From NCBI GenBank assembly GCA_035315185.1, contig DATFYE010000113.1, positions 14,202 to 78,201 of the forward strand: DNA of 64,000 nucleotides, given 5' to 3'. This DNA is from Syntrophorhabdales bacterium (GTDB lineage Bacteria; Desulfobacterota; Syntrophorhabdia; Syntrophorhabdales; WCHB1-27). The notes beneath the pieces were generated by a model. That model was not told the origin of the DNA. It saw only the letters and a program-made list of their open reading frames with translations, and made no database searches. Below, one piece after another: positions 38,835 through 60,156 of this stretch (positions within the stretch are counted from its first letter, which is position 1; each line of letters starts with the position of its first letter). The translations under genes and the position numbers were made by a program.

Positions 38835-39044
38835 GTGACAAGCGGTAGCAGCGTGCATATTGAAGCTAGTGGTAGCCTGATTGCTAATCCGCCCGGACGT
38901 GCCGCCCATAAGGAAAGGGCTCATGGTTCGGCAGCTCTCAGTTTCGGCACGGACCTTTCTTTAATTGCACTGCTCGCTCGAGCAGGACTTCTATCACCTC
39001 TCGTCTTCCGAGTCTGGTGTTACGTGCGACCGTTCCTGCAGTGA
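38835..39044 (+). CDS. Candidate 69-aa ORF translationally coupled to the S24/S26-like peptidase
   Basis: GTG start 7 nt after a GAGGGGGA RBS. The stop TGA (39042-39044) overlaps the ATG (39044) of the peptidase gene. The C-terminal segment is hydrophobic. Confidence 0.3.
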   Translation: MTSGSSVHIEASGSLIANPPGRAAHKERAHGSAALSFGTDLSLIALLARAGLLSPLVFRVWCYVRPFLQ

Positions 39045-39445
39045 TGGGACAGGCACAGCTCACCTACGTAACCTATACGGGTTCCAGTATGGAACCTATC
39101 CTCAAACCCGGAGATCTCCTCCAGGTTCTCGCTTACTCAGGCAGCCCAGTCAGGCGCGGGGATGTTATTTTCTATTCATGTCCCTCAAAGAGCTGCAACG
39201 TCGTGCACCGCGTGACAGATTTTGATACTCGCGGAATCAGGACAAGGGGAGACAGCAATGCACGTATTGACCCGTGGGTTGTAAGCCCTAAGCAGGTCGT
39301 CGGGTACGTTGCGCATGCGCAACGCGGCTGTCGATGGCGGCTAATCTCAGGTGGGCTCGTGGGGCACTTTGTGGCAAACCTCCTGCACGCTGTTAAGCAT
39401 TTCAGCCTCTTCTTCTCAGGCGCACTCTATCCTCTCTATCGTTGA
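39044..39445 (+). CDS. S24/S26-family (signal-peptidase-I-like) serine peptidase, copy 1
   Basis: GSSMEPILKPGDLL...RRGDVIFY...VVHRV...TRGDSN..D.. The GTG at 39017 is an alternative start. Confidence 0.7.
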   Translation: MGQAQLTYVTYTGSSMEPILKPGDLLQVLAYSGSPVRRGDVIFYSCPSKSCNVVHRVTDFDTRGIRTRGDSNARIDPWVVSPKQVVGYVAHAQRGCRWRLISGGLVGHFVANLLHAVKHFSLFFSGALYPLYR

Positions 39446-40621
39446 ATTACATAGGCCACTCCTGCCGTGCGGGAAGATGCTCTTCCTCTGTGCCTCTTCA
39501 CAGTACCAGAAGCCTGCCCAGAGATTTTTGCTCCGGTAATAGTTCTGAGCCACGCAACTCCCCAGGCAGATGCTTTTCATCAGGCAGTCGCCGCAGATAC
39601 CTTCAAACCGATGGGGCAGGCCGTCGCGCAGCTCGTTGAGCACGGATGAATCACGCCAGACGTCTTCCAGCCGGTCCGTCGACGCATGGCCGAAAACGAG
39701 CTCAGGTACGCTCTCCCCGATCCCACAGAGCGCGTATGAACCATTGGCGAGCACGCCCAAGATACCCAGAATCCCGCAGACACCGCAGCCCTGCTGCTCG
39801 CCGAACATCTTGCTCATAGGCTTGAAGGCAGCAGGGTGGCTGTAGAAGAGTTTCAGGTGTGTGGACGCAGAGAGTGTTTTTTCGACCCACGCACCCAGCT
39901 CCACCAGTTCATCGATGGTGAGGGCTTCTCCCTGCTCGTGCATCTTCTCCCCTCTGGCGGTGGGCTGCACAAGGTTGAACTTAACAGAGCCCGCGCCCAC
40001 GGATTCTGCAAGGCGCACCACAGCCCCCATCTGGTCTTTGTTGCGACGTACGATGCTCATGATCACCTGCGGTCTGAAACCTGCAGACACGAGATTTTGG
40101 ATGCCCTGGAGTGCCGCCTCAAATGAACCGTTCACACCGCGCATCCACTCGTGGGTCGCAGCATCCGCCCCATCGATACTGACGGAGACGAATGTGTTCT
40201 TGCAGGACTTCAGTTCCTGAGCCAGCTCGGGTGTGCAGAGGACTCCATTCGTTTCGACCGTGAGTCCCAAATCTTCTCTTCGCACAATACCCAGTAGCTC
40301 CCGTATGTGCGGGTGCAGCAGCGGCTCACCACCCGTCAGCTTCACACCGGTAAGGCCAAGAAGCTTCGCCTGCTTAATAATCGACTCGAAGAGATCCACA
40401 GGGAGCGCCGGGTAGCTCTTTCCTCCTCCCTGGAATTTCGGCGCTATCCAGCAGTGACGGCAGGCAAGGTTGCAACCTTCGGTGAGATAGAAATAGATGC
40501 AGTTGAGATGGTACCGAACTGCACAGACGTCGGAAGTAACCTGTTGAATTGGTTCGATTCGTTCAGCGAGTTCGATTGGTTCGATTGGTTTCATTGGCTC
40601 GATTAGTTCGGCTGGTCTCAT
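39416..40621 (-). CDS. Radical SAM/SPASM-domain peptide-maturase-like enzyme
   Basis: CNLACRHCW (CX3CX2C). C-terminal SPASM Cys clusters (GCGVCG...YALCG...ICGDCLMKSICLGSC). The N-terminal (E-P-I)n tail is encoded by the 9-bp repeat tract. Confidence 0.85.
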   Translation of the reverse strand: MRPAELIEPMKPIEPIELAERIEPIQQVTSDVCAVRYHLNCIYFYLTEGCNLACRHCWIAPKFQGGGKSYPALPVDLFESIIKQAKLLGLTGVKLTGGEPLLHPHIRELLGIVRREDLGLTVETNGVLCTPELAQELKSCKNTFVSVSIDGADAATHEWMRGVNGSFEAALQGIQNLVSAGFRPQVIMSIVRRNKDQMGAVVRLAESVGAGSVKFNLVQPTARGEKMHEQGEALTIDELVELGAWVEKTLSASTHLKLFYSHPAAFKPMSKMFGEQQGCGVCGILGILGVLANGSYALCGIGESVPELVFGHASTDRLEDVWRDSSVLNELRDGLPHRFEGICGDCLMKSICLGSCVAQNYYRSKNLWAGFWYCEEAQRKSIFPHGRSGLCNSTIERIECA

Positions 40622-40626
40622 TGGTT
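40546..40626. repeat. Tandem 9-bp-periodic tract (ATTGGTTNN x9), left flank of the four-helix-bundle gene
   Basis: gaattggtt cgattcgtt cagcgagtt cgattggtt cgattggtt tcattggct cgattagtt cggctggtc tcattggtt. Confidence 0.8.
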
Positions 40627-41016
40627 CCCCTTCGAATCTTGATTCAATTTTGATGTCTTGTTGAGATACGGAATAAAGTTATTGACCTTCTTCCAGGCAA
40701 GATTGGCCTGCTCTGTCACTTCGCTCATCTCGGGTTCATCTACGTATTTCTGGTCCAGCGCAACACAACAGTGGCTCACCGTTTCAACAATGGAAGCCCG
40801 AGAATAATCCAGAAACTTCATAAACTCTCTCGTGCTAGCACGATGGAAGCCCTCTGCTATGTTGGCCATGGCCGATACCGCGCTTCGTTTAATCTGTCCA
40901 ACAAGCTCATAGTCCGTTCTAAATCGGTCATTTCTTGTAATCCCATATATCAGCCTCACAAACTTCCTTGCATCCTTCCAGCACTCCAAATCCTCAAATC
41001 GTCTTGCGGTCGCCAT
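40618..41016 (-). CDS. Four-helix-bundle protein (23S rRNA intervening-sequence protein / Avd-like family)
   Basis: MATARRFEDLECWKDARKFVRLIY...QIKRSAVSAMANIAEGF.R.S..EF..FL.YSRAS..E is the classic signature of this family. Start reassigned to M14. Confidence 0.8.
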   Translation of the reverse strand: MATARRFEDLECWKDARKFVRLIYGITRNDRFRTDYELVGQIKRSAVSAMANIAEGFHRASTREFMKFLDYSRASIVETVSHCCVALDQKYVDEPEMSEVTEQANLAWKKVNNFIPYLNKTSKLNQDSKGNQ

Positions 41017-41042
41017 CGGCCAGCCTTTACCATCTCCGCTCT

Positions 41043-41105
41043 TCGACCACCCCAACCAACTGAACCAATAGAACTAATTCAACCAATCAAACTAACGGAA
41101 CCAGT
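41043..41105. repeat. 9-bp-periodic tract in inverted orientation (NNAACCAAT x~7), right flank of the four-helix-bundle gene
   Basis: ccaaccaac tgaaccaat agaactaat tcaaccaat caaactaac ggaaccagt. Confidence 0.75.
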
Positions 41106-41113
41106 CTCGATTT

Positions 41114-42229
41114 TTACGCGCAGCATGCGCAGTTGACCGCCGCCGGCAGTCTTCCCCCTTCTCCCAGGAACTTCCTGAGACAGGCATCCGGCGCAGGATG
41201 GTAGACGCTGCCGGTGATCGTGTAAGCCAGAGCAGGGCAGCTGCCCGTGCAGTAGTTCATGTACGCGCAGTCCTCGCAGAACTCAAAGCTGGAGAGCGGG
41301 ATGGTGCGGCGCTCTCTGAGCCGGTTCAACTCGGGGTGGTTTTGCCAGATATCGCGGAGATCATTCTGGTTTATGCGGCCCAGCACCATATGAGGTATTT
41401 GAGCACAAGGCACGATGGCCCCGTCAGCACGCACCGCGATCTGGTTCATGGGTCCACCGCAGCCGGTAAGAAAGCCGCGGCCCGACATCTCGCGCCCTTC
41501 CTTACGCGCCTGCTCCATTTCCAGCCATCCCCTTCCTTCGGCCAGAGGGCCGGCCGCCGCACTGATCCGGCCGTTATACTTGGCGGTCAGTCGCAGCAGT
41601 GTTTCCATGGCCAGGAACCGTTCCTCGGCTGTGAGCTGGACTATCTCGGCATTCTTCCGACAGAGGCCGAGGTGGGACGCGGAATTGGTGGAAAAACCCG
41701 ACAGACCGACTTCTTCGAGCAGGAGGCGCGAGACGTTCTCAAGGTCACGCACGTTCTTGCGATGGATCGTCACCCGCACCGTGACCGGCAGGTTGTAGCG
41801 CTGGAGGTGCTTTATACCATTCATGGCTTTCCGGAAGCTGCCCCTGCCCCGGCAGGCATCATGGGTTATCGGTACGGAGCCGTCAATTGAGACCTGGACA
41901 CTGTCGCACCGCTTCGTCGACGCGAGAAATGCTGCCATATCGTCAGTGATTAACGTGCCGTTGCTCAGGATCTTGAATCGCATGCGATTACGGACGATGC
42001 CTCCTATGAGTTCTTTCAGATCTTCCCGGATGAAAGGCTCACCGCCACACAGTGTCACATCCATGACAGCACAGCGGCCCAACTCCTCGAAAAAGGTGAG
42101 CCATGCCTCAGTGGGAAGGTCGGTCCCCACATCGCCCGCGCTCGAGAAATGGCTGCAGTACTTGCAGCGGAGGTTGCACCGGTCGGTTATGTCAATGTCC
42201 ATCGATTTCGGGGTTCTCATCAGCTGCAT
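41114..42229 (-). CDS. Radical SAM/SPASM-domain peptide-maturase-like enzyme
   Basis: DRCNLRCKYC (CX3CX2C). SPASM region GCGGPMNQIAVRADGAIVPC...FCEDCAYMNYCTGSC. GGAGG RBS. Confidence 0.85.
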   Translation of the reverse strand: MQLMRTPKSMDIDITDRCNLRCKYCSHFSSAGDVGTDLPTEAWLTFFEELGRCAVMDVTLCGGEPFIREDLKELIGGIVRNRMRFKILSNGTLITDDMAAFLASTKRCDSVQVSIDGSVPITHDACRGRGSFRKAMNGIKHLQRYNLPVTVRVTIHRKNVRDLENVSRLLLEEVGLSGFSTNSASHLGLCRKNAEIVQLTAEERFLAMETLLRLTAKYNGRISAAAGPLAEGRGWLEMEQARKEGREMSGRGFLTGCGGPMNQIAVRADGAIVPCAQIPHMVLGRINQNDLRDIWQNHPELNRLRERRTIPLSSFEFCEDCAYMNYCTGSCPALAYTITGSVYHPAPDACLRKFLGEGGRLPAAVNCACCA

Positions 42230-42296
42230 AGTTTACCTCCGTGAAATGAGACCGCAGTGCTTGATTGGGGACCGCCGGCAGAGCCGGCTCGAGGAG

Positions 42297-42497
42297 CGCT
42301 GCGCTTGAGGACTACTTCTTTTGAGGATAGACTAATCACTTCAGCATTCATTCGCATCTCCCAAAAATACCCATTTATGTGCTTCACTCTCTTGCCTCAA
42401 GCCGCCGAAGGCAGCGGCCCTCAAGGGAGCACGGCTCCCGATCCTGAAGGCCTTCTCGAGGCCGCTCCTCAAGGAAACGAAGTTTCCGGTCTTTGCA
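42297..42497. repeat. Hairpin-rich CTYRAGG repeat cluster, copy R2
   Basis: Same motif family and the same two exact strings as R1, in the same order. Hairpin GGAAACGAAGTTTCC at 42473-42487. Confidence 0.7.
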
Positions 42498-42589
42498 CCG
42501 CCTGCCGCCTTTAGTGCCTCTTTGCAATCACCATACCAAGGGATAGTCACGCAGTAAGTGGCACAGCACGTGCATGGTATGAAAGGATT

Positions 42590-44461
42590 ATGAGGACATG
42601 GCTCTCTTATGTCAAGCAAGCGTTTTCAAGGGAAATACCTGCTGATGAAATATCAAGCGCGGAAGAGCTACCTACCGATATCCGGCGCAACCTGAGGCAT
42701 ATCTATCCCTTTATCCGCCGTCATTGGCAAAAAGGCCTCCTCGGCGCCGGATTGATTTTCGTGGGGACACTGCTTAGTTTTCCGCAACCCCTTATCTCCC
42801 GGTATCTCGTTGATACGGTCATCGGGGGGCGCCGGCTCAATCTCCTGGCCGGGGTAATTCTCCTCATGGTCGCCATTTCGGGATGCTCAAAACTCTGCGG
42901 CCTCCTGCAGCAATTCTACGTCGCCCGCTTTGAGCAGATGGTTACCATGGATATACAGGAGAGCCTGCTCGGCCACGTCCTGCGTCTTCCCAAGGCCTTT
43001 TTCGATAGTAAGGAGACAGGGTACCTCATGTCGCGGATATCTTCCGACGTGGGCGGTCTCCAGTGGTTCTTCTCCAGCACCATCGTGCACATCGTCACCA
43101 ATGTTCTGAGATTCGCGGGCGGGATCTGGTTCCTGGTTTACCTGGAATGGCGGCTTGCCGTGGCAGCGGTTATCGTCCTGCCGGGACTCGTCTTCATGAT
43201 CCGTTATTTTTCTGGTAGATTGCGTGTCATGAGCCATTGGCTCATGGAACAGCACGCCCAGGTTCACAGCCGCTTTCAGGAATGTCTGTCGTCGGTGCCG
43301 CTCATCAAGGCCTTCTCCACAGAAGATCGGGAGGTGTCCACCGTTGTTTCGGGCATGCGAAGAATCGTCAATCTTTCACTCGAACAGTCGACCGTGAACT
43401 CGATCGCAGGCCTGGCCATAGGCTCCATGCCCAGCGTGGTGAATCTTTCGGTCCTGGTGATCGGCGCCTATTGGGTGATAACCGGCCACTGGACCCTCGG
43501 CTCGCTCTTTGCCTTTCAAGGTTACCTCGGGTACGTGTTCGGCCCGGCCCAGTTCCTTGCTTCGGCCAATTTAGGGCTCCAGGGCGCCAGGGCATCGCTG
43601 GAGCGTGTCTCGGCCCTTTTCGACCTTGTCCCGGAGGAGAATACGGGCAAAGGCCTGATAATCGATCGTCTGCAAGGCGACATCGAGTTTCGGAACGTCT
43701 CCTTCTCCTATGATGCGCATAACCCTGTGCTTGAAAACGTTTCCTTTCGCGTCAGACAGGGAGAACGCGTGGCCATCGTGGGTCCCAGCGGAGTTGGTAA
43801 GACAACCCTGGTGAGCCTCCTCCTCCGGTTCTACCGGCCGACCTCGGGAGAAGTCTATCTCGACGGCATACCCGCCAGCGATATCGAGGTCAGGGCCCTA
43901 CGCCGGCGCATCGGTTACGTGTCACAGGGTACCTTACTCCTGTCGGGAACCGTTATGGAGAACTTACGGTATGGTAACCAGGAGGCGACGGATGAAGAAG
44001 TCATACAGGCTGCAGAGGCCGCGAACATTCATGACTTTATCGTGAGCCTCCCGGAAGGTTACGACACGGAGATCGGACAAAACGGAGTCAGTCTCTCCGA
44101 GGGGCAGCGTCAGCGCCTCTCCATCGCGCGAGCACTGATCAAGCGTCCCGATATCCTGGTTCTTGACGAGCCCTCATCCGCGCTCGACAATCTGACTGAA
44201 AAATCGATATTCCGTTCATTGCCTTTTCTGGTGCGGAATAAGACCCTCTTTGTGGTGGCCCACCGGCTTTCCACGATTGAGGATTCGGATCGGATCCTGC
44301 TCCTGAACGAATGCCGTCTCGTCGCCGTCGGTACCCATCAGTCGCTCCTGGAGGCGAATGCTTACTACAGGTCGCTCTACGGGAACCAACAAGGGGGCAT
44401 CAGGAGCGCGGACCTTGAAGAGCGGGCTCCGCGCTTGAAGACCATCAACCCCCTGGGTTGA
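42590..44461 (+). CDS. ABC exporter, fused permease/ATPase (MsbA-type), with no C39 peptidase domain
   Basis: Six-TM N-terminal half. Walker A GPSGVGKTT, signature LSEGQRQRL, Walker B ILVLDEPSSALD. Confidence 0.9.
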   Translation: MRTWLSYVKQAFSREIPADEISSAEELPTDIRRNLRHIYPFIRRHWQKGLLGAGLIFVGTLLSFPQPLISRYLVDTVIGGRRLNLLAGVILLMVAISGCSKLCGLLQQFYVARFEQMVTMDIQESLLGHVLRLPKAFFDSKETGYLMSRISSDVGGLQWFFSSTIVHIVTNVLRFAGGIWFLVYLEWRLAVAAVIVLPGLVFMIRYFSGRLRVMSHWLMEQHAQVHSRFQECLSSVPLIKAFSTEDREVSTVVSGMRRIVNLSLEQSTVNSIAGLAIGSMPSVVNLSVLVIGAYWVITGHWTLGSLFAFQGYLGYVFGPAQFLASANLGLQGARASLERVSALFDLVPEENTGKGLIIDRLQGDIEFRNVSFSYDAHNPVLENVSFRVRQGERVAIVGPSGVGKTTLVSLLLRFYRPTSGEVYLDGIPASDIEVRALRRRIGYVSQGTLLLSGTVMENLRYGNQEATDEEVIQAAEAANIHDFIVSLPEGYDTEIGQNGVSLSEGQRQRLSIARALIKRPDILVLDEPSSALDNLTEKSIFRSLPFLVRNKTLFVVAHRLSTIEDSDRILLLNECRLVAVGTHQSLLEANAYYRSLYGNQQGGIRSADLEERAPRLKTINPLG

Positions 44462-44478
44462 GGTGAAAGGACTGTTGG

Positions 44479-44523
44479 ATTAGTTTGATTAGTGTCATTC
44501 GTTTAATTGGTTATATTGTTCGA
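44479..44523. repeat. Third 9-bp-periodic ATTNGTTNN tract
   Basis: attagtttg attagtgtc attcgttta attggttat attgttcga, starting 18 nt after the ABC exporter stop. Confidence 0.6.
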
Positions 44524-44615
44524 AAAGTTCTACGTCGGCCAGACCTCGTCTGCAAACAACTGGGCGGATACCCCTTGCGTGGCATGCGCCCAGTTGGGTT
44601 TTCTGCATTACCGAA

Positions 44616-53463: not shown

Positions 53464-55428
53464 CTATTCCTGTAAAAGCTTATGCAATAAGTCTACAACT
53501 TTCCCGCTCTTATCGAACCTGAGCACATAGCAGGGAACCTCTCGCGCTATACCGCCGATCAGCGGTAATGTTTTTTCCCACCAATCGACCGTGACAAGAG
53601 GTCTAATTAAGCAACTCAACAGCCTCCTGGTAATGTCTTTCTTATTCTTTAATAGTATAAGCCGGTTCTGTTCTGATTTTTCCAGAAACATAACCGCTTT
53701 TAGAAACGCGGAGCTCGCCGATATATCCGGCACGTCGCCGTTGCTCCAGGTGCCGTAGATCTTAACGCCCTCGGGGCGCTGGCGCACAATTATCCTGTCA
53801 TCGCAGAGGATTTCGGCTTTGCCTTGTAACATAGTTGCCATGGTGGATTTGCCCGCCTCGGGATGTCCTGCGAAAAGCAGCCCTTTACCTCCAAAATTCA
53901 CGCCGCAGGAATGCAAGAAGCAGCCTTGCCTGTCGGCTAAAATACGCGCCAGAAGAATCTGGTCAGTGGGAAAAAGTGTTAAAGAATGCAATCCGCCTTC
54001 CAGAAATGTCTCTTCCTTTTCGTTGTAAATCATCGCCCTCGTATGGCCGGAGTCAAAAACTGCCACCGTATGAAGGCTCTTATCCGTCCATTCCGGAGAG
54101 AGTCCCAGATATATCCAGGAATCATCCTTTTTGTAAATCGCCCAGGGCGGTTTTCGATAAACCTCCTTGCCTAAATTGTTGTCATCCAAATCCGGAAGCG
54201 AGAAATGGTGGCTTATAGCAATAATATCTTCACCAGGGTCTTTGACTTCAAATTTTTTGAATTTAGAATCAAAAGTATCTTCAGTTATGGGTAGATCAGA
54301 ATCAACCCGCACCGTAATATCAGCTATTCCATAGTAACGCCTATGCTTCCTTAGCCAATCTTCCTTAAACCTTTTAGTCTCCTTTGCTACAGCGCAAAGA
54401 TAATTCACTCTGGCGCCGAATCTGCGATGCTCTAAATAACCATAAGCAACGCACCAGCGGCAATGATTCTGTAGATCGCAAGATTCACAATTCTCCTTGT
54501 ATTCTTTTGTGGTTCTAACTCTTCTGGACAGGGAAGGGATAAACTCTTCCCAGCACTGTCTGAACGTTCCCTTTCTTAAATCATAGCGGAGTTGCGGATC
54601 TTTAATAAAGCAGCAAAATGTAGCCTTGCCGTAAGGGTCGATATGAAAATCGCGCCCTGCGGCCACGCAGGAGCTAAAAAAGTGGCTGCTATTCCCTCTA
54701 TAGCAATGTACATTCTTTTCTTCTTTGTCGAGCCAATCTTCATACGACAAATCGGGCTCATCAAGTTCCACCACCTGTTTGGGCGGAAGCCTTTGCCTGA
54801 GTATTTCCCGATTTATTCCCGGATCACCGGAGGAAGAAAGATAGAGCCATGGCGCGCCCACCCTGTAATGTTTGCTCAATGACTGGGCCAACTCAACCAT
54901 TTTGTTCCACTGATGGTAATTGTCCTTCATCGGGATAAGCTGGACCGTAAAGCCCGCCTCTGCGTCTTTCAGGTATCTAAGCCCCCCCATGGTGGCTTCA
55001 AAGGAACCGGGATTACGGGTGATATGGTCATGGACATCCGCGGTAGCTCCGCAGAGAGCGACCATCTTAGTTCCTTTTCGTTTCATCAGCCGCGCAATGT
55101 TAGGTGTAATCAGCGTGCCGTTAGTGTTAATGGAATACGATACGGAATGAGCCGTAATATAATCAAATATGTCGGTAAAATCGGGACGAAGCATCGGCTC
55201 ACCGCCGGATATGCTCCACCTTTGACAACCTAATTGCCTGGCGTTTTCCACTATAGTATTGATCTCCTCAATGGTAAGTTCGTCTTCTTTTTCTTTGGCA
55301 TCTGCTGGTATCCTGAGCCAGCAGTGTCTGCAGTTATTGTTACAGCGGTAGGTAAGGTCGATACTGCCGTTTAACGGGAGGCGCGGTGACGTATCGATTC
55401 TTTTAACGGTAAGGTAGGTTTGTTGCAT
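53464..55428 (-). CDS. Radical SAM/SPASM enzyme fused to a C-terminal HPr-kinase-like P-loop domain
   Basis: TYRCNNNCRHCW and NCESCDLQNHCRWC in the first ~350 aa. C-terminus: LHSCGVNFGGKGLLFAGHPEAGKSTMATML...ILCDDRIIV (HprK C-terminal-domain-like Walker A plus DD). Confidence 0.75.
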   Translation of the reverse strand: MQQTYLTVKRIDTSPRLPLNGSIDLTYRCNNNCRHCWLRIPADAKEKEDELTIEEINTIVENARQLGCQRWSISGGEPMLRPDFTDIFDYITAHSVSYSINTNGTLITPNIARLMKRKGTKMVALCGATADVHDHITRNPGSFEATMGGLRYLKDAEAGFTVQLIPMKDNYHQWNKMVELAQSLSKHYRVGAPWLYLSSSGDPGINREILRQRLPPKQVVELDEPDLSYEDWLDKEEKNVHCYRGNSSHFFSSCVAAGRDFHIDPYGKATFCCFIKDPQLRYDLRKGTFRQCWEEFIPSLSRRVRTTKEYKENCESCDLQNHCRWCVAYGYLEHRRFGARVNYLCAVAKETKRFKEDWLRKHRRYYGIADITVRVDSDLPITEDTFDSKFKKFEVKDPGEDIIAISHHFSLPDLDDNNLGKEVYRKPPWAIYKKDDSWIYLGLSPEWTDKSLHTVAVFDSGHTRAMIYNEKEETFLEGGLHSLTLFPTDQILLARILADRQGCFLHSCGVNFGGKGLLFAGHPEAGKSTMATMLQGKAEILCDDRIIVRQRPEGVKIYGTWSNGDVPDISASSAFLKAVMFLEKSEQNRLILLKNKKDITRRLLSCLIRPLVTVDWWEKTLPLIGGIAREVPCYVLRFDKSGKVVDLLHKLLQE

Positions 55429-55531: not shown

Positions 55532-55741
55532 TTAAATATCATTTTTATCAAAACCAGAGGCTCCATCCCTTTCAAATTGAATAAAATCTCCCATGTGTAC
55601 CTTTCTTGTCAAGGCCATTTTTTGCAATTTCTTTGCAATTATTTGCCATTTTTCAGTTAAGCCCTCTATATAATCTATGTACACATCATCCACGTCGTAA
55701 TCTGAAAATGCGGGAAACGGCTCGTCAGCTGCCCGCTCCAT
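55532..55741 (-). CDS. Hypothetical acidic 69-aa protein within the maturase operon
   Basis: ORF only. MERAADEPFPAFSDYDVDDVYIDYIEGL... No Cys. Confidence 0.35.
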   Translation of the reverse strand: MERAADEPFPAFSDYDVDDVYIDYIEGLTEKWQIIAKKLQKMALTRKVHMGDFIQFERDGASGFDKNDI

Positions 55742-56297
55742 GAAATGAAACGAATAGTGACGTCATTATGGAACGGATGGGGCGAAGCAGTATCAGTGCA
55801 ACACGAACGATCGGAATCATCAAGTCCTTTCGTGCCAGCAAGGCTATGAAAAATCTCTCAGGACCCAGGCCAATGATAACCCTCTTGCGACCCCTTTCCA
55901 CCCTCGTGACCAACCCCAGGACGTTTGCCGCGGGGACCGGACCGTCTCCAGCTCCTGTGTCATCCCCTTTCATGAAATAAGAATTTGGCTCCGTCCTGAT
56001 TACCCGGTGTATCACGAGTTTTTCTATTTCCCTTTGAGTAAACGCCACCACATCACCGACACGTGGCGAAGCCTTGCCCAGAGGTGAAACAGTGATCACG
56101 TCGCCATCCTTAATGAAAGGGTACATGCTAAATCCTCCGGCCCGGAACCTCAACGCCACTCCCTTGGCCAGTGTCGCTCGCAGGAGTTCAATGAATGGTG
56201 GCCCTGTCAAGGACAACTCATTTCCTCCCGGCCGGGACACGCCGGAACCCGTTGGGCATTCCGCAATCATCCTTGTTTTCAGAAATCCCTCTATCAT
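55725..56297 (-). CDS. S24/S26-family (signal-peptidase-I-like) serine peptidase, copy 2
   Basis: GGFSMYPFIKDGDVITV...RVGDVVAF...LVIHRV...MKGDD..AGDG, collinear with 39044..39445. The start is uncertain (56297, 56429 or 56564). Confidence 0.65.
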   Translation of the reverse strand: MIEGFLKTRMIAECPTGSGVSRPGGNELSLTGPPFIELLRATLAKGVALRFRAGGFSMYPFIKDGDVITVSPLGKASPRVGDVVAFTQREIEKLVIHRVIRTEPNSYFMKGDDTGAGDGPVPAANVLGLVTRVERGRKRVIIGLGPERFFIALLARKDLMIPIVRVALILLRPIRSIMTSLFVSFHGAGS

Positions 56298-56680: not shown

Positions 56681-57724
56681 ATGGTTTTATTCTTTGGATT
56701 TCCGCTCGTGCTTACGCTCCTCATGACCCCGTCCATCATATGGCTTGCGGGAAAATATGGGTGCATCGACCAGCCGGGAGAGAGAAGGGTCCACTGCGAT
56801 CCTACGCCGCGGTGGGGTGGCCTGGCCTTCTTCGCCGGTGTGCTTCCTATCTTTTTCTTTATCCAGCTTGACAACCGCCTGGTTTCTTACCTTGCAGCTT
56901 CCCTCCTGCTTGTAGCGGTCGGTGCGATTGACGATTGGAAACAGCTCGGTTTCACGGTCAAACTGCTCGCTATCATGGCAGCCGTCACGACAGTCGTTTT
57001 CGGCGGGGACTTGGTTGTGCGGAGCATTGGCACGTACGGCTCCTTCGGCGAGATAGAGCTCGGTTCCCTGGCGATTCCTTTCACCTACCTCTGCATCGTA
57101 GGCGTGACCAACGCGATGAACCTCATAGACGGATTGAACGGACTCGCCGGCGGTATTTCATTCATAGCATCGTTGTTCATGGCCATAGTCGCCTACCTTT
57201 CCGGGAGCCATCTGCTCGCAGGGATCTGCCTGGCGTTCGCCGGCGCAACCGGAGCATTCCTGCGCTACAACATGCTCAGTAAGGCACACATCTTCATGGG
57301 CGATTCAGGGAGCCTCTTTCTCGGGTTCTCCCTTTCGGTCTTCTCCATCATGTTGACCCAGGATTCACGATATCACGTTGAGCCCATGTTCCCGATGCTG
57401 GTGCTACTCCTGCCTATTTTCGATACGCTGAGGGTCATGGGCCTGAGAGCCTTTTCAAGAAAAAACCCCTTCGAAGCAGATACGAACCACCTCCATCACT
57501 TGCTTCTGAAGGCCGGTTTTTCTCCGAAGAAAAGCGTTATCCTGCTCTGGTCCCTCACGGCGGCCTTGGGCCTTGCCGCAACCCTGATCCACTTCAGGGG
57601 CACATCGACGCCGTACCTCATCGTGGTACTCACCGGCTCCATCTTCCTGAGTCTCTTCGCCGACTCGCTCGGGAGACGCGGCAAGAAGCGCCATTTCACC
57701 ACCCGTCTCGCTTCGCGCGACTAG
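56681..57724 (+). CDS. MraY/WecA-family polyprenyl-phosphate N-acetylhexosamine-1-phosphate transferase
   Basis: AVGAIDDWKQL, NAMNLIDGLNGLAGG, FMGDSGSLFLGF. Multi-TM. Confidence 0.85.
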   Translation: MVLFFGFPLVLTLLMTPSIIWLAGKYGCIDQPGERRVHCDPTPRWGGLAFFAGVLPIFFFIQLDNRLVSYLAASLLLVAVGAIDDWKQLGFTVKLLAIMAAVTTVVFGGDLVVRSIGTYGSFGEIELGSLAIPFTYLCIVGVTNAMNLIDGLNGLAGGISFIASLFMAIVAYLSGSHLLAGICLAFAGATGAFLRYNMLSKAHIFMGDSGSLFLGFSLSVFSIMLTQDSRYHVEPMFPMLVLLLPIFDTLRVMGLRAFSRKNPFEADTNHLHHLLLKAGFSPKKSVILLWSLTAALGLAATLIHFRGTSTPYLIVVLTGSIFLSLFADSLGRRGKKRHFTTRLASRD

Positions 57725-57827
57725 AGACACAGAGGGCACCGAGGTAAGATCTGAGAGAAAAGCGGATGAAGTAATGGGCATAATGAGCAGAAAGCGGGGG
57801 GTCCAACTCGCAACGAAGAACGAAGAA

Positions 57828-58835
57828 CTACTTTACGCTCTTCACAAAATAATCTATCGTCTTTCGCAGGCCCTCTTCCAGCGGCACTTGAGGCTGCCAG
57901 TCGAGGTATTGCCGGGCCCTGGAGATATCAGGGCACCTTCTTTTCGGATCGTCATCAGGGAGCTGCTCGAATATAATCTTGGAGCTTGAGCCGATCATCT
58001 TCACAACACGTTCGGCGAGCTCAACGACGGGCACTTCGTGTGGATTCCCTAAGTTGAGGGGGCCGGGAAAGCCCGAAAGATAGGGCCTCGTGTAATCTCT
58101 TTCCCGCGCCTGTTCTCCGGGCTCGTAATCCATCATCCGGATCATGCCTTCAACCAGATCATCTACGTAGCAGAAGGATCTGGTCTGTGAGCCGTCACCG
58201 TAAACGGTGATGCTTTGCCCGCGGATGGCCTGCATAATGAAGTTGCTGATCACCCTTCCGTCATCAGGCCGCATCCTCGGTCCATACGTGTTGAAGATGC
58301 GGATGACCTTGATATCGACCTTGTTCTGACGCAGATAATCAAAAAAGAGCGTCTCAGCAACCCGCTTGCCTTCGTCGTAGCAGCTTCTCCTGCCGATCGG
58401 GTTCACATTGCCCCAGTACTCCTCTTTCTGCGGATGCACCTCAGGGTCGCCGTAAACTTCGCTCGTCGAAGCCTGCAGCACCCTCGCCCTCACCCGTTTT
58501 GCAAGCCCGAGCATGTGGAGCGCCCCCAGCACATTGACTTTGGTTGTTTTGACCGGATTGTACTGGTAATGGATGGGACTCGCAGGGCAAGCCAGATTGA
58601 ATATCCAGTCGACTTCAAGCATCAAGGGCTGGGTGATGTCGTACGTCAGAAGTTCGAAGTTGGATCGATCCAAAAGATGGGAGATGTTCTTCTTCGTGCC
58701 CGTGAAAAAGTTGTCCAGGCAGACTACATCATGCCCGTCCAGAACGAGCCGCTCGCAGAGATGGGAGCCGATGAAGCCGGCCCCGCCGGTGACGAGAATC
58801 CGCTTCGGCTCTTTATACGCACCATACTTATACAT
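57828..58835 (-). CDS. uxs: UDP-glucuronate decarboxylase (UDP-xylose synthase)
   Basis: [32 protein letters not shown]...L and [10 protein letters not shown]. Confidence 0.85.
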
Positions 58836-60156
58836 TGGGCCGACCTATGCAAAGATAGTGAAATCCTTGCTCGGCGAGTAGCTTGGGATTGTACTGGTTT
58901 CTCCCGTCAAAGATCACGTGCGTCTTCATGAGCGACTTCATCCGGTCAAAATCAGGTTCCCTGAAGGAGAGCCACTCCGTCAGCAGAATCAGGCCTTCGG
59001 CGCCCTCGAGCACTTCGTACTGGTTCCTGCCAAAGAGTACTGCTGCGTTACCGCTGAAGATTTTGGACGCATTCTCCGACGCTTTAGGATCGTACACGTG
59101 GCAGACGGCGCCATCGGCTGTGAGCCCATCGATTATCTCAATCGCCGGCGCCTCTCGCATATCGTCAGTATTCGGCTTAAAAGCTAGACCCCATACAGCA
59201 AGCTTCTTGCCCTGAAGCTTCTCTCCGTAAAATGCACGAATTCTTTTCAGGAAGTTCAAGCGCTGGGAGCTGTTCGCCTCCATGACCTCAGAGAGTATGG
59301 AAAAATGGAAACCGGCATCCTCTGATGTTTTTATCAAAGCTCGCACATCCTTGGGGAAACAAGACCCTCCAAATCCCACGCCGGGAAAGAGAAACTTGGG
59401 GCCGATCCTCGAGTCAGAGCCCATGCCGCGCATTACTTTCATCACGTCTGCCCCTACCCTTTCGCAGACGGTTGCCATCTGATTCATGAAGGATATCCGT
59501 GTCGCGAGCATCGAATTTGCCGCATATTTTGTCATCTCGCTCGACCTTAAATCCATCACCAGAAACGGTGCACCTGTTCTGACAAAGGGTGCATAGAGTT
59601 CCCGCAGTATCTCCTCAACCCTGCTGTTCTCAACGCCGACAACCACGCGCTCAGGCTTCATGCAGTCATCCACCGCAACCCCTTCTTTCAGAAACTCAGG
59701 ATTCGAGGCGACGTCGAAGGGCACGTCAACGCCTCTCTTTTCCAACTCCAGCCGGATGGCGTCCCTCACCTTTTCGCATGTACCGACGGGTACCGTTGAC
59801 TTGACAACAATGATGCGATACTTCTCGATCGATTGCCCTATGCCTGATGCCACCTTCAAGACATACTGCAGATCGGCTGACCCATCATGATCCTGGGGAG
59901 TGTTGACGCAGACAAATATAATGAGACCATGCTGCGCGGCCTGCTCGATGTTATCGGTGAATTCAAGCCGCCCTTCCTGGATATTATTCTTGACCAGCTC
60001 CTCCAGGTGGGGCTCATAGATGGGTATCTCTGCGCGCTTCAGGCGCTCTATCTTCTCCCGGTCCACATCCATGCAGAGCACATTGTTGCCCACCTCTGCG
60101 AAGCAGACACCCGAAACAAGCCCCACATAGCCGACTCCGATGAAAGAAATCCGCAT
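58828..60156 (-). CDS. ugd: UDP-glucose 6-dehydrogenase
   Basis: [27 protein letters not shown] and the catalytic [10 protein letters not shown]. Confidence 0.9.

Follow-up and report, generated by a model that had tools for sequence, protein, structure and literature searches.

What does a single protein do when it carries a radical S-adenosylmethionine (SAM)/SPASM peptide maturase at one end and a kinase-like P-loop domain at the other? The question is raised by a gene in a 64,000-nucleotide stretch of a Syntrophorhabdales bacterium genome (contig DATFYE010000113.1, positions 14,202 to 78,201), which is called the window here and whose own numbering is used throughout. An earlier note, made from the letters of the window, had described the gene at 53464-55428 as a covalent fusion of the two enzyme types. 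Its coordinates were exact; left unstated was that the gene lies on the minus strand. The gene belongs to a cassette for a ribosomally synthesized peptide with post-translational modifications (RiPP). The reading preferred here, which is believed and doubted in about equal measure, is that the fusion protein is a bifunctional RiPP maturase: its radical SAM (rSAM) half would crosslink core cysteines, and its C-terminal domain would phosphorylate the C-terminal serine of the precursor in an ATP-dependent reaction.

The fusion protein and its radical SAM half

The features of the gene are as follows.

53464..55428, minus strand: fusion gene, 654 amino acids (aa), with a radical SAM/SPASM unit (residues 1-360) and a ScmC-family HprK/PEPCK-like P-loop domain (residues 361-654)
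54889..55356, minus strand: radical SAM core, residues 25-180 (PF04055), CxxxCxxC = C29/C33/C36 at 55321-55344
54394..54669, minus strand: SPASM-type auxiliary-cluster region, residues 254-345 (C254, C272, C314-x2-C317-x5-C323-x2-C326, C345)
53467..54348, minus strand: ScmC-like domain, residues 361-654, made of a beta-rich N-subdomain and a P-loop subdomain and equal to a whole standalone ScmC-like protein
53794..53913, minus strand: putative active site, with His506, Walker A G521-x4-G526-K527-S528-T529 and L541-C-D543-D544-R545

A single uninterrupted open reading frame (ORF) of 654 codons with an ATG start fills the interval. The rSAM/SPASM maturase that the earlier note had seen in the first ~350 residues was recovered as an rSAM unit, probably of SPASM type, at residues ~1-360. 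Membership in the radical SAM superfamily is clear from the Pfam model Radical_SAM (PF04055), which scored 71.3 bits on residues 25-180 against a cut-off of 29.5. The motif CNNNCRHC is encoded at 55321-55344 on the minus strand, and its cysteines (C29-x3-C33-x2-C36) are invariant in 33 homologue sequences, as are seven SPASM-type cysteines (254, 272, 314, 317, 323, 326, 345). The Pfam SPASM model (PF13186) reached 16.5 bits with a cut-off of 21.5, yet all of its profile positions (1-67 of 67) were covered by residues 254-318. The cysteine spacing of the fusion is Cx2Cx5Cx2C, while the canonical SPASM spacing is Cx2Cx5Cx3C.

The models of the mycofactocin maturase MftC (residues 22-331) and of AlbA (residues 16-330) align across the whole rSAM unit, MftC being the best full-length model match. 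MftC acts on the C-terminal residues of its precursor. Because the CxxxCxxC motif begins at residue 29, the fusion enzyme has no N-terminal RiPP recognition element (RRE). The NCBIfam matches of the rSAM proteins of the cassette include StsB, PapB, AlbA and ScmE/ScmF, all far under the equivalog cut-offs. The matches to StsB, PapB and AlbA suggest that the crosslinks are probably thioethers.

The C-terminal domain is a distant relative of HprK

In Pfam and NCBIfam scans of the whole protein only rSAM-type families were listed (for NCBIfam, among the best 25 of 75 families) and the C-terminal domain went unseen, so residues 360-654 were scanned alone. All NCBIfam matches of this part are HprK-type: ScmC (TIGR04249, E = 4.8e-8), HprK-related kinase B (1.3e-6), HprK/P (2e-4) and HprK-related kinase A (2e-3). 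The sole Pfam match is Hpr_kinase_C (PF07475), at 14.9 bits versus a cut-off of 33.3 (E=0.019). The HprK/P model TIGR00679 gave 20.6 bits with a cut-off of 240, and the ScmC equivalog TIGR04249 gave 32.7 bits with a cut-off of 125. The comparison with PF07475 and the HprK-related kinase A and B models, which the earlier note had proposed, therefore returned HprK-family models alone, with every score sub-threshold. A PHROGs search with the domain found nothing. The kinase-like domain that had been placed in the last ~250 residues is present, and it is longer, at ~294 residues (361-654).

Precomputed Pfam annotation assigns PF04055 and PF27840 (named 'ScmC') to all 120 listed homologues, and PF27840 also to standalone relatives; the assignment of the fusion domain to PF27840 is by proxy, through homologues 63-89% identical. 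On TIGR04249 the scores ran from 26 to 43 bits for the close standalone relatives and did not exceed 47 for ten divergent representatives (20-47 overall, versus 125). Since all relatives fall below this cut-off, the fusion clade and its close standalone relatives appear as a sister group of the curated ScmC equivalog. Judged by these matches, the C-terminal domain is best described as a distant member of the HprK superfamily (Pfam ScmC family) that lies outside HprK/P and the curated TIGRFAM equivalogs.

When a profile of 26 C-terminal domains was compared with PDB sequences, the top hits were HprK/P of L. casei and S. xylosus (E 0.01-0.05), and in these alignments the histidine, the P-loop and the aspartate pair (DD) were in register. 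The AlphaFold (AF2) model of the domain has a pLDDT of 89.5 and a pTM of 0.86. Its best Foldseek matches were ATP-dependent phosphoenolpyruvate carboxykinases (PEPCK), aligned over the whole length (probability 1.00, E ~3e-7, TMq 0.4-0.47), and the P-loop half matched HprK/P structures (1ko7, 1kkl, 1jb1, 3tqf; probability 1.00, E 3e-5 to 3e-4, TMt ~0.5). HprK/P and PEPCK are structurally akin. The domain model thus has an HprK/PEPCK-like fold, with moderate TM-scores.

The motif singled out in the earlier note, HSCGVNFGGKGLLFAGHPEAGKST...LCDDR, is encoded at 53794-53913 on the minus strand, where it reads HSCGVNFGGKGLLFAGHPEAGKSTMATMLQGKAEILCDDR. The Walker A/DD arrangement claimed for it is borne out: His506, GKST526-529 and DD543-544 are all present, in HprK order and in register with HprK/P. 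In 115 divergent representatives (down to ~26% identity) His506 is conserved in 110, Lys527 in 112 and Arg545 in 104. Asp543 is found in 100 of them (with Glu in 7 more) and Asp544 in 98 (with Glu in 14 more). A lack of significant HprK-family similarity, which would have undone the earlier description, is contradicted by the HprK-type matches, the fold match and the register of the motifs.

Fused and standalone forms

At least 120 full-length homologues of the fusion protein were listed from NCBI, ENA, JGI and Logan (626-692 aa, mostly ~650 aa; 63-89% identity). Among those with a source name, most were labelled Candidatus Omnitrophota. Conservation spans both halves and the junction, where an HRRY motif is nearly invariant, and the DNA at the rSAM/ScmC junction is unremarkable.

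Related loci were scanned with one genome per species, which gave 78 loci, ~65 of them fused. The ScmC domain and an rSAM unit were counted in one ORF in 69 loci, including complete chromosomes (L023, L042, L071). Fused loci occur in bacteria (Omnitrophota, Victivallales, Desulfobacterota, NC10, Chlorobiaceae, Aminicenantes, Acidobacteriota, Chloroflexota, Saganbacteria/WOR-1) and in archaea (Methanothrix, Methanoregula).

With the C-terminal 294 residues as the query, 1.84 billion cluster representatives were searched exhaustively, and 3981 ScmC-domain proteins (50%-identity cluster representatives) were detected at E<1e-3. Many are fusions of ~650 aa matched at ~357-648, and many are standalone proteins of ~300 aa. 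As the standalone proteins cover query residues 2-291, the C-terminal half of the fusion corresponds to a whole ScmC-like protein. Split and fused versions, which the earlier note had wanted surveyed, both occur. Genuine standalone ScmC genes, with no rSAM gene directly upstream, are present in five loci (L025, L043, L065, L081, L082); a reading of the 'split' loci as an rSAM gene followed by a ScmC gene was rejected on this ground. A single origin of the fusion is unsupported by a crude neighbour-joining (NJ) tree in which fused and standalone forms interleave, and this tree lacks the accuracy to demonstrate that fusion happened repeatedly.

Disrupted-looking fusions (split or truncated) were seen in L004, L016, L066 and L080. 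In L016:1204-2641 (Omnitrophota) the rSAM half is gone except for its last ~15 residues, which are in frame with the ScmC domain that follows; the adjoining precursor has 3 cysteines, not 4. Either a natural 'de-fusion' or an error of assembly could explain this locus.

In the search of representatives one protein of 6164 aa (P0262) contained 38 separate stretches matching residues 49-97 of the ScmC N-terminal subdomain. This suggests that, at the level of sequence, a small beta-unit of the subdomain also exists elsewhere as a long tandem repeat.

The precursor family

The last gene of the cassette encodes a peptide with the layout of a RiPP precursor.

50460..50720, minus strand: precursor peptide, 86 aa, with leader MAHRKWEKPQLIVLVKGKPEESVLVNCK, a Cys/Gly-rich core and the tail C-NALGR-S-COOH; a strong Shine-Dalgarno-like AAGGGGGG lies upstream

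The small ORFs of all loci were searched iteratively. This resulted in 119 candidates, from which 112 unique full-length precursors from 63 loci were retained. The leader is nearly fixed (KKK-W-x-K-P-x-L-[IV]-V-L-x-R-G-x-P-E-E-x-V-L-x-x-C-K), and the distance from the W to the C is 21 in 96 of 109 precursors. The motif WxxPx[LIVMF] could be anchored in 109 of the 112, with Leu at its last position in 94% of these. Downstream of the CK the core is hypervariable, rich in Ser, Gly and Cys, and has a median length of 34 residues. Its only fixed positions are Cys(-7) and Ser(-1): the last cysteine stands exactly 6 residues before the end in 92 of 112 precursors, and of all 112, 106 end in Ser, 5 in Thr and 1 in Pro (10.5% of background ORFs end in Ser). 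The window precursor is unusually long for the family and has 7 cysteines, and it keeps the C-NALGR-S tail. None of the NCBIfam models recognise the precursors; the sole resemblances, to lasso leader families (PadeA among them), were non-significant. Discrete RREs of lasso and linear polyphosphorylated peptide (LPP) systems recognise the WxxPxL motif (PMC13381572).

Four cysteines are found in 82 of the 112 precursors, and cysteine number follows the number of rSAM units. Standalone-ScmC loci with two rSAM proteins have 3-Cys precursors (6/6), whereas at least 4 cysteines are found in 89 of 97 precursors from fused loci with three rSAM units (Fisher p = 2e-6, phylogeny ignored). The extra cysteine of the fused-locus precursors is located at -10/-11, 3-4 residues from Cys(-7) and next to the terminal Ser. 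This suggests that the fused rSAM unit may serve the cysteine nearest the kinase site, which would rationalise the fusion.

The cassette

In the window the cassette genes are packed on the minus strand in the order peptidase, fusion, rSAM/SPASM, PqqD, rSAM/SPASM, precursor. The intergenic gaps from the fusion gene to the precursor are 13, -7, -14 and 51 nucleotides (nt).

55725..56297, minus strand: signal peptidase I (SpI) of the archaeal type / S24-like protease, with a GFSMYP motif; start codon uncertain, ORF open to 56564
52260..53450, minus strand: second radical SAM/SPASM paralogue, 396 aa (PF04055), 13 nt downstream of the fusion gene
51958..52266, minus strand: discrete PqqD-family RRE, 102 aa (PF05402, 49.5 bits)
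50772..51971, minus strand: third radical SAM/SPASM paralogue, 399 aa (PF04055), 31% identical to the rSAM unit of the fusion
42590..44461, plus strand: ABC exporter (ABC_membrane + ABC_tran), possibly of the cassette, with homologous exporters beside the cassette in 31 other loci

The second paralogue is likewise 31% identical to the rSAM unit of the fusion, over 346 aa. The solved structures nearest to the window PqqD are PqqD itself and the lasso B1 RREs TbiB1 and PbaB1. The archaeal-type SpI/S24-like protease, whose start was inferred from homologues in L001 and L002, scored 26.2 bits on PF00717 and 52.3 bits on TIGR02228 (cut-off 51.85); comparison with the PDB gave nothing meaningful. 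It is probably the leader peptidase.

These parts recur. Across 81 loci the second rSAM was matched in 74, the third rSAM and PqqD in 65 each, and the peptidase in 58. The commonest gene order is fusion, rSAM, PqqD, peptidase, rSAM, and the number of precursor genes per cassette ranges from 1 to 11. Of 80 related loci, 35 have a PF14907-type nucleoside triphosphate (NTP) transferase; among the 30 loci that are 18 kb or longer the count is 19. ABC exporters are present in 32 of the 81 loci, the window included, and adjoin the cassette in the 31 others.

Some loci differ in layout. The largest precursor set was found in a locus binned as Dehalococcoidia (L017:10976-18600), where 11 precursor genes share a common leader and have differing cores. 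Two fusion genes each are present in L013 and L058. In L082:4668-8188 and in L083 a PF14907 NTP transferase, a standalone ScmC, a PqqD and an SpI-like peptidase (GWSMSPF) occur with no rSAM gene between them. A precursor was not found on the L082 contig, which ends before any further gene.

A 69-aa ORF (55532-55741, minus strand) is located between the peptidase gene and the fusion gene. It matches no family, lacks a counterpart in any of the other 80 loci and is unlikely to be a gene. The fusion gene may have its promoter in the 296-nt gap upstream.

Proposed function and alternatives

The proposal starts from what the loci display directly: the domain identities, the conservation of the catalytic motifs, the recurrence of fusion and cassette, a precursor family with a C(-7)...S(-1) tail, and the correlation of cysteine number with rSAM number. 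The kinase activity and its site, the type of crosslink, the cysteine served by the fused rSAM unit and the order of steps would then be as follows. The discrete PqqD RRE would deliver the precursor by way of its WxxPxL leader. The N-terminal rSAM/SPASM unit, one of three paralogous ones, would install a Cys-derived crosslink in the C-terminal part of the core. The ScmC domain, a predicted P-loop phosphotransferase of the HprK/PEPCK fold, would transfer phosphate from ATP to the side chain of the C-terminal serine, as PadeK and PsmK do. The archaeal-type signal-peptidase-like protease would cut off the leader, and the ABC transporter would export the product. In many loci the PF14907 NTP transferase probably elaborates the phosphate further.

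The precedent for these steps comes from lasso peptides. PsmK and PadeK phosphorylate the C-terminal Ser side chain of their precursors, and activity is lost when DD is mutated to AA; for hexose to be added to the phosphorylated forms, PsmN, a protein of the PF14907 type, is needed (PMC6993621). From this precedent, the presence of the same toolkit and the conserved catalytic residues, we infer that the terminal serine is phosphorylated by the ScmC domain, acting as an ATP-dependent kinase. The suggestion of the earlier note that crosslinking and phosphorylation of one substrate are coupled gains support by analogy, as 111 of 112 precursors end in Ser or Thr and the paeninodin/LPP toolkit is present.

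Several points weigh against the proposal. The kinase role of the ScmC family is a prediction from sequence, fold and context, and the models of HprK/P, of the HprK-related kinases and of curated ScmC all gave scores well short of the cut-offs. The likeness to PadeK, PsmK and LppK rests on context and on shared HprK-type family matches, and no PF14907 gene is present within the window. The full-length AlphaFold model is poor (pLDDT 70, pTM 0.50) and lends no support to a physical coupling between the two active sites. The cysteine-count correlation draws on 6 precursors from 5 standalone loci, with statistics that ignore phylogeny. By parsimony on the crude NJ tree, the interleaving of fused and standalone forms requires at least 24 changes, so the fusion is not obligatory. 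Finally, the fixed C-x5-S spacing fits equally well with the serine being the acceptor of a cysteine crosslink.

This last point is the core of an alternative that is unlikely but deserves to be taken seriously. The terminal serine would accept an rSAM thioether from Cys(-7), closing a C-x5-S macrocycle, and the ScmC domain would be an ATP-dependent or nucleotide-binding scaffold that presents the precursor to the rSAM unit. A spacing kept in 92 of 112 precursors between the sole fixed core positions is typical of residues joined in a single ring, the StsB, PapB and AlbA matches liken the rSAM paralogues to sacti- and ranthipeptide synthases, and MftC, the best full-length model match, acts on precursor C-terminal residues. 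Nucleotide-dependent leader handling had already been raised in the earlier note. For the scaffold role, however, the strict retention of the histidine, the Walker A lysine and the DD pair over wide divergence favours phosphotransfer over binding alone, and L082 and L083 pair ScmC with an NTP transferase, PqqD and SpI peptidase where no rSAM gene lies between. The known HprK-like RiPP enzymes are, moreover, true kinases (PMC6993621). A ring closed on the serine and a kinase are not mutually exclusive ideas.

A second alternative, for which the prospects are poorer still, keeps the kinase but makes the phosphate transient. Phosphoserine would serve as a leaving group, giving dehydroalanine that is attacked by Cys(-7) to form a lanthionine-like ring, or leading to another cyclisation, with a logic like that of class III/IV lanthipeptide synthetases. 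Such a route shares the evidence for a kinase acting on the C-terminal serine, and it would account both for the fixed Cys(-7)/Ser(-1) spacing and for the strong preference of Ser over Thr. Against it, family scans and locus comparison found no lyase-like domain in the cassette, and we know of no precedent for HprK-type kinases in elimination chemistry. The frequent PF14907 partner fits better with a phosphate that persists and is decorated further, as in pseudomycoidin (PMC6993621).

It is improbable that the substrate of the ScmC domain is not the precursor but a sugar, a nucleotide, a lipid-linked polysaccharide intermediate or the enzyme itself, or that the domain works as a phosphorylase. 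The idea draws on the best structural matches, as the fold is common to PEP carboxykinase, a small-molecule kinase, and on the polysaccharide genes among which the cassette is embedded; HprK/P is itself both a kinase and a phosphorylase. The domain, however, travels with PqqD, precursors and rSAM genes across phyla while the polysaccharide genes vary, and its fusion to a peptide-modifying rSAM unit and the invariant serine point to a peptide substrate.

That a frameshift, the loss of a stop codon or a chimeric assembly produced an artefactual fusion, the other objection foreseen in the earlier note, can be dismissed, since the ORF is intact, more than 120 independent full-length homologues are colinear with it, 69 loci including complete chromosomes are fused and the junction is conserved, and no support was found beyond the four loci with split or truncated genes.

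Neighbouring genes

Downstream of the cassette, two further modification genes and a second RiPP-like gene set (window 39017-46621) were found. A similar rSAM/PqqD/ABC set occurs in L002.

49116..50363, minus strand: PRMT-like methyltransferase (PRMT_C and PrmA matches), 96 nt downstream of the precursor
46975-48945, plus strand: B12-binding rSAM protein with a TPR tail, beyond the PRMT-like methyltransferase
46298-46621, minus strand: PqqD of the second set
44616-46058, minus strand: DUF3466-repeat protein of the second set
41114-42229, minus strand: rSAM/SPASM protein of the second set
40618-41055, minus strand: 23S_rRNA_IVP four-helix protein of the second set
39416-40621, minus strand: rSAM/SPASM protein of the second set
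39017-39445, plus strand: S24/S26-like peptidase of the second set

The tail of the methyltransferase is weakly PqqD-like (PF05402, E=0.021). A PRMT-like methyltransferase was detected in 1 of the 81 loci and a B12-binding rSAM protein in 2. The two genes are either lineage-specific additions to the cassette, with the methyltransferase as an accessory candidate, or parts of the neighbouring set. The exporter at 42590..44461 possibly serves the cassette, or it belongs to the adjacent second gene set.

On the other side the cassette is abutted by polysaccharide and envelope genes (window 56681-60156) for a Glycos_transf_4 protein (WecA/MraY-like), an NAD-dependent epimerase/dehydratase and a UDP-glucose 6-dehydrogenase. 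The cassettes of L001 and L002 likewise sit among glycosyltransferase and Wzy genes.

Novelty and significance

The ScmC domain family and its architecture are already in databases, the SynChlorMet cassette has been named bioinformatically, and HprK-like RiPP kinases are known. A literature search, with subscription journals outside its scope, turned up no account of the cassette or of the rSAM-ScmC fusion as a recurring enzyme. The same literature yielded nothing on a precursor family with an invariant C-terminal serine, a link to paeninodin or LPP systems, or a Cys/rSAM rule, and it contained no characterised rSAM maturase joined to a kinase-like domain. Few peptide natural products are phosphorylated, the cases so far being lasso peptides, LPPs and cyanobactins; to our knowledge, radical-SAM RiPPs are not known to be phosphorylated.

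A more far-reaching interpretation is put forward tentatively, with somewhat more doubt than belief: the fusion may be the founding enzyme of an undescribed and very widespread RiPP class of anaerobic Bacteria and Archaea, in which peptides are crosslinked at several cysteines by multiple rSAM units and carry a phosphorylated, often decorated C-terminal serine. With an HprK-fold kinase joined to the rSAM unit that serves the neighbouring cysteine, one polypeptide would read the C-x2/3-C-x5-S tail and perform both radical and phosphoryl chemistry. In a bolder version the phosphate would act as the leaving group that closes a C-terminal ring, which would be a new route to lanthionine-like links.

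If the proposal is true, a substrate and a function would be assigned to the long-orphan ScmC/SynChlorMet-type systems. The ScmC family is large and spans many phyla of uncultivated anaerobes and methanogens. The paeninodin/LPP phosphorylation toolkit would be linked with rSAM crosslinking, and a compact bifunctional enzyme would become available for peptide engineering. The predictions are testable, as they name fixed-leader precursors with Cys(-7) and Ser(-1), the modification site, the residues K527, D543/D544 and H506, and the Cys/rSAM rule.

Comparison with known systems

With HprK/P (PF07475, TIGR00679) and ATP-dependent PEPCK the C-terminal domain shares the P-loop fold and, in register, the histidine, the GxxGxGKS/T motif and the DD pair. 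It differs from HprK/P in its sub-threshold scores, in the lack of a phosphotransferase system (PTS) or carbon-catabolite context, and in having a different N-terminal subdomain. The rSAM half resembles AlbA, StsB, PapB and MftC in its CxxxCxxC and SPASM-type cysteines, its full-length alignment, the Cys-rich cores and the dependence on an RRE. In contrast to these enzymes it has sub-equivalog scores, no fused RRE, and a C-terminal kinase-like domain that they lack.

The closest named system is the SynChlorMet (SCM) cassette, a bioinformatically defined set of ScmC (TIGR04249), ScmD (PqqD-like) and ScmE/ScmF (rSAM/SPASM). The SCM precursor is not known to have been identified. The SCM combination of a ScmC-like P-loop protein, a PqqD and two paralogous rSAM/SPASM proteins is present in the window and in most of the 81 loci. 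ScmC is also the best NCBIfam match of the C-terminal domain, ScmE/ScmF are among the rSAM matches, and the taxa are similar (Desulfobacterota, Chlorobiaceae, methanogens). The scores set the systems apart (32.7 versus 125 bits for ScmC, and 68-99 versus 400 for ScmE/F over the three rSAM units). In the present cassette, moreover, ScmC is fused to an extra, third rSAM unit, and an SpI-like peptidase and an identifiable precursor family are present.

The paeninodin-type lasso kinases (PadeK, ThcoK, PsmK) share the HprK-type P-loop, the DD pair and the C-terminal serine, as well as a PqqD-type RRE, a [Y/W]xxPx[L] leader, a frequent NTP transferase partner and an ABC exporter. The context of an HprK-like RiPP kinase (RRE, leader, serine, NTP transferase, exporter) is therefore found here too, with the NTP transferase in other loci and not in the window. 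Unlike the lasso systems, the cassette has no lasso cyclase or B2 protease and its crosslinks would come from rSAM enzymes; the kinase-like domain is rSAM-fused, belongs to the ScmC family and matches Pfam Hpr_kinase_C at E=0.019.

The LPP clusters of Bacillota (LppK/LppB/LppS/LppN/LppD) combine an SpI peptidase, an RRE, a kinase resembling HprK, an NTP transferase and an exporter like MsbA, and they sit within polysaccharide loci (PMC13381572). LPPs are linear, are made without rSAM enzymes and are phosphorylated on Ser3 of the core, whereas the present cassette has 2-3 rSAM/SPASM proteins, Cys-rich cores and a C-terminal serine, and its hosts are mostly uncultivated anaerobes and archaea. 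The two have in common the leader motif (YxxPxV/WxxPxL) and the polysaccharide-locus setting, and L082 and L083 display an LPP-type layout built on a ScmC-family protein.

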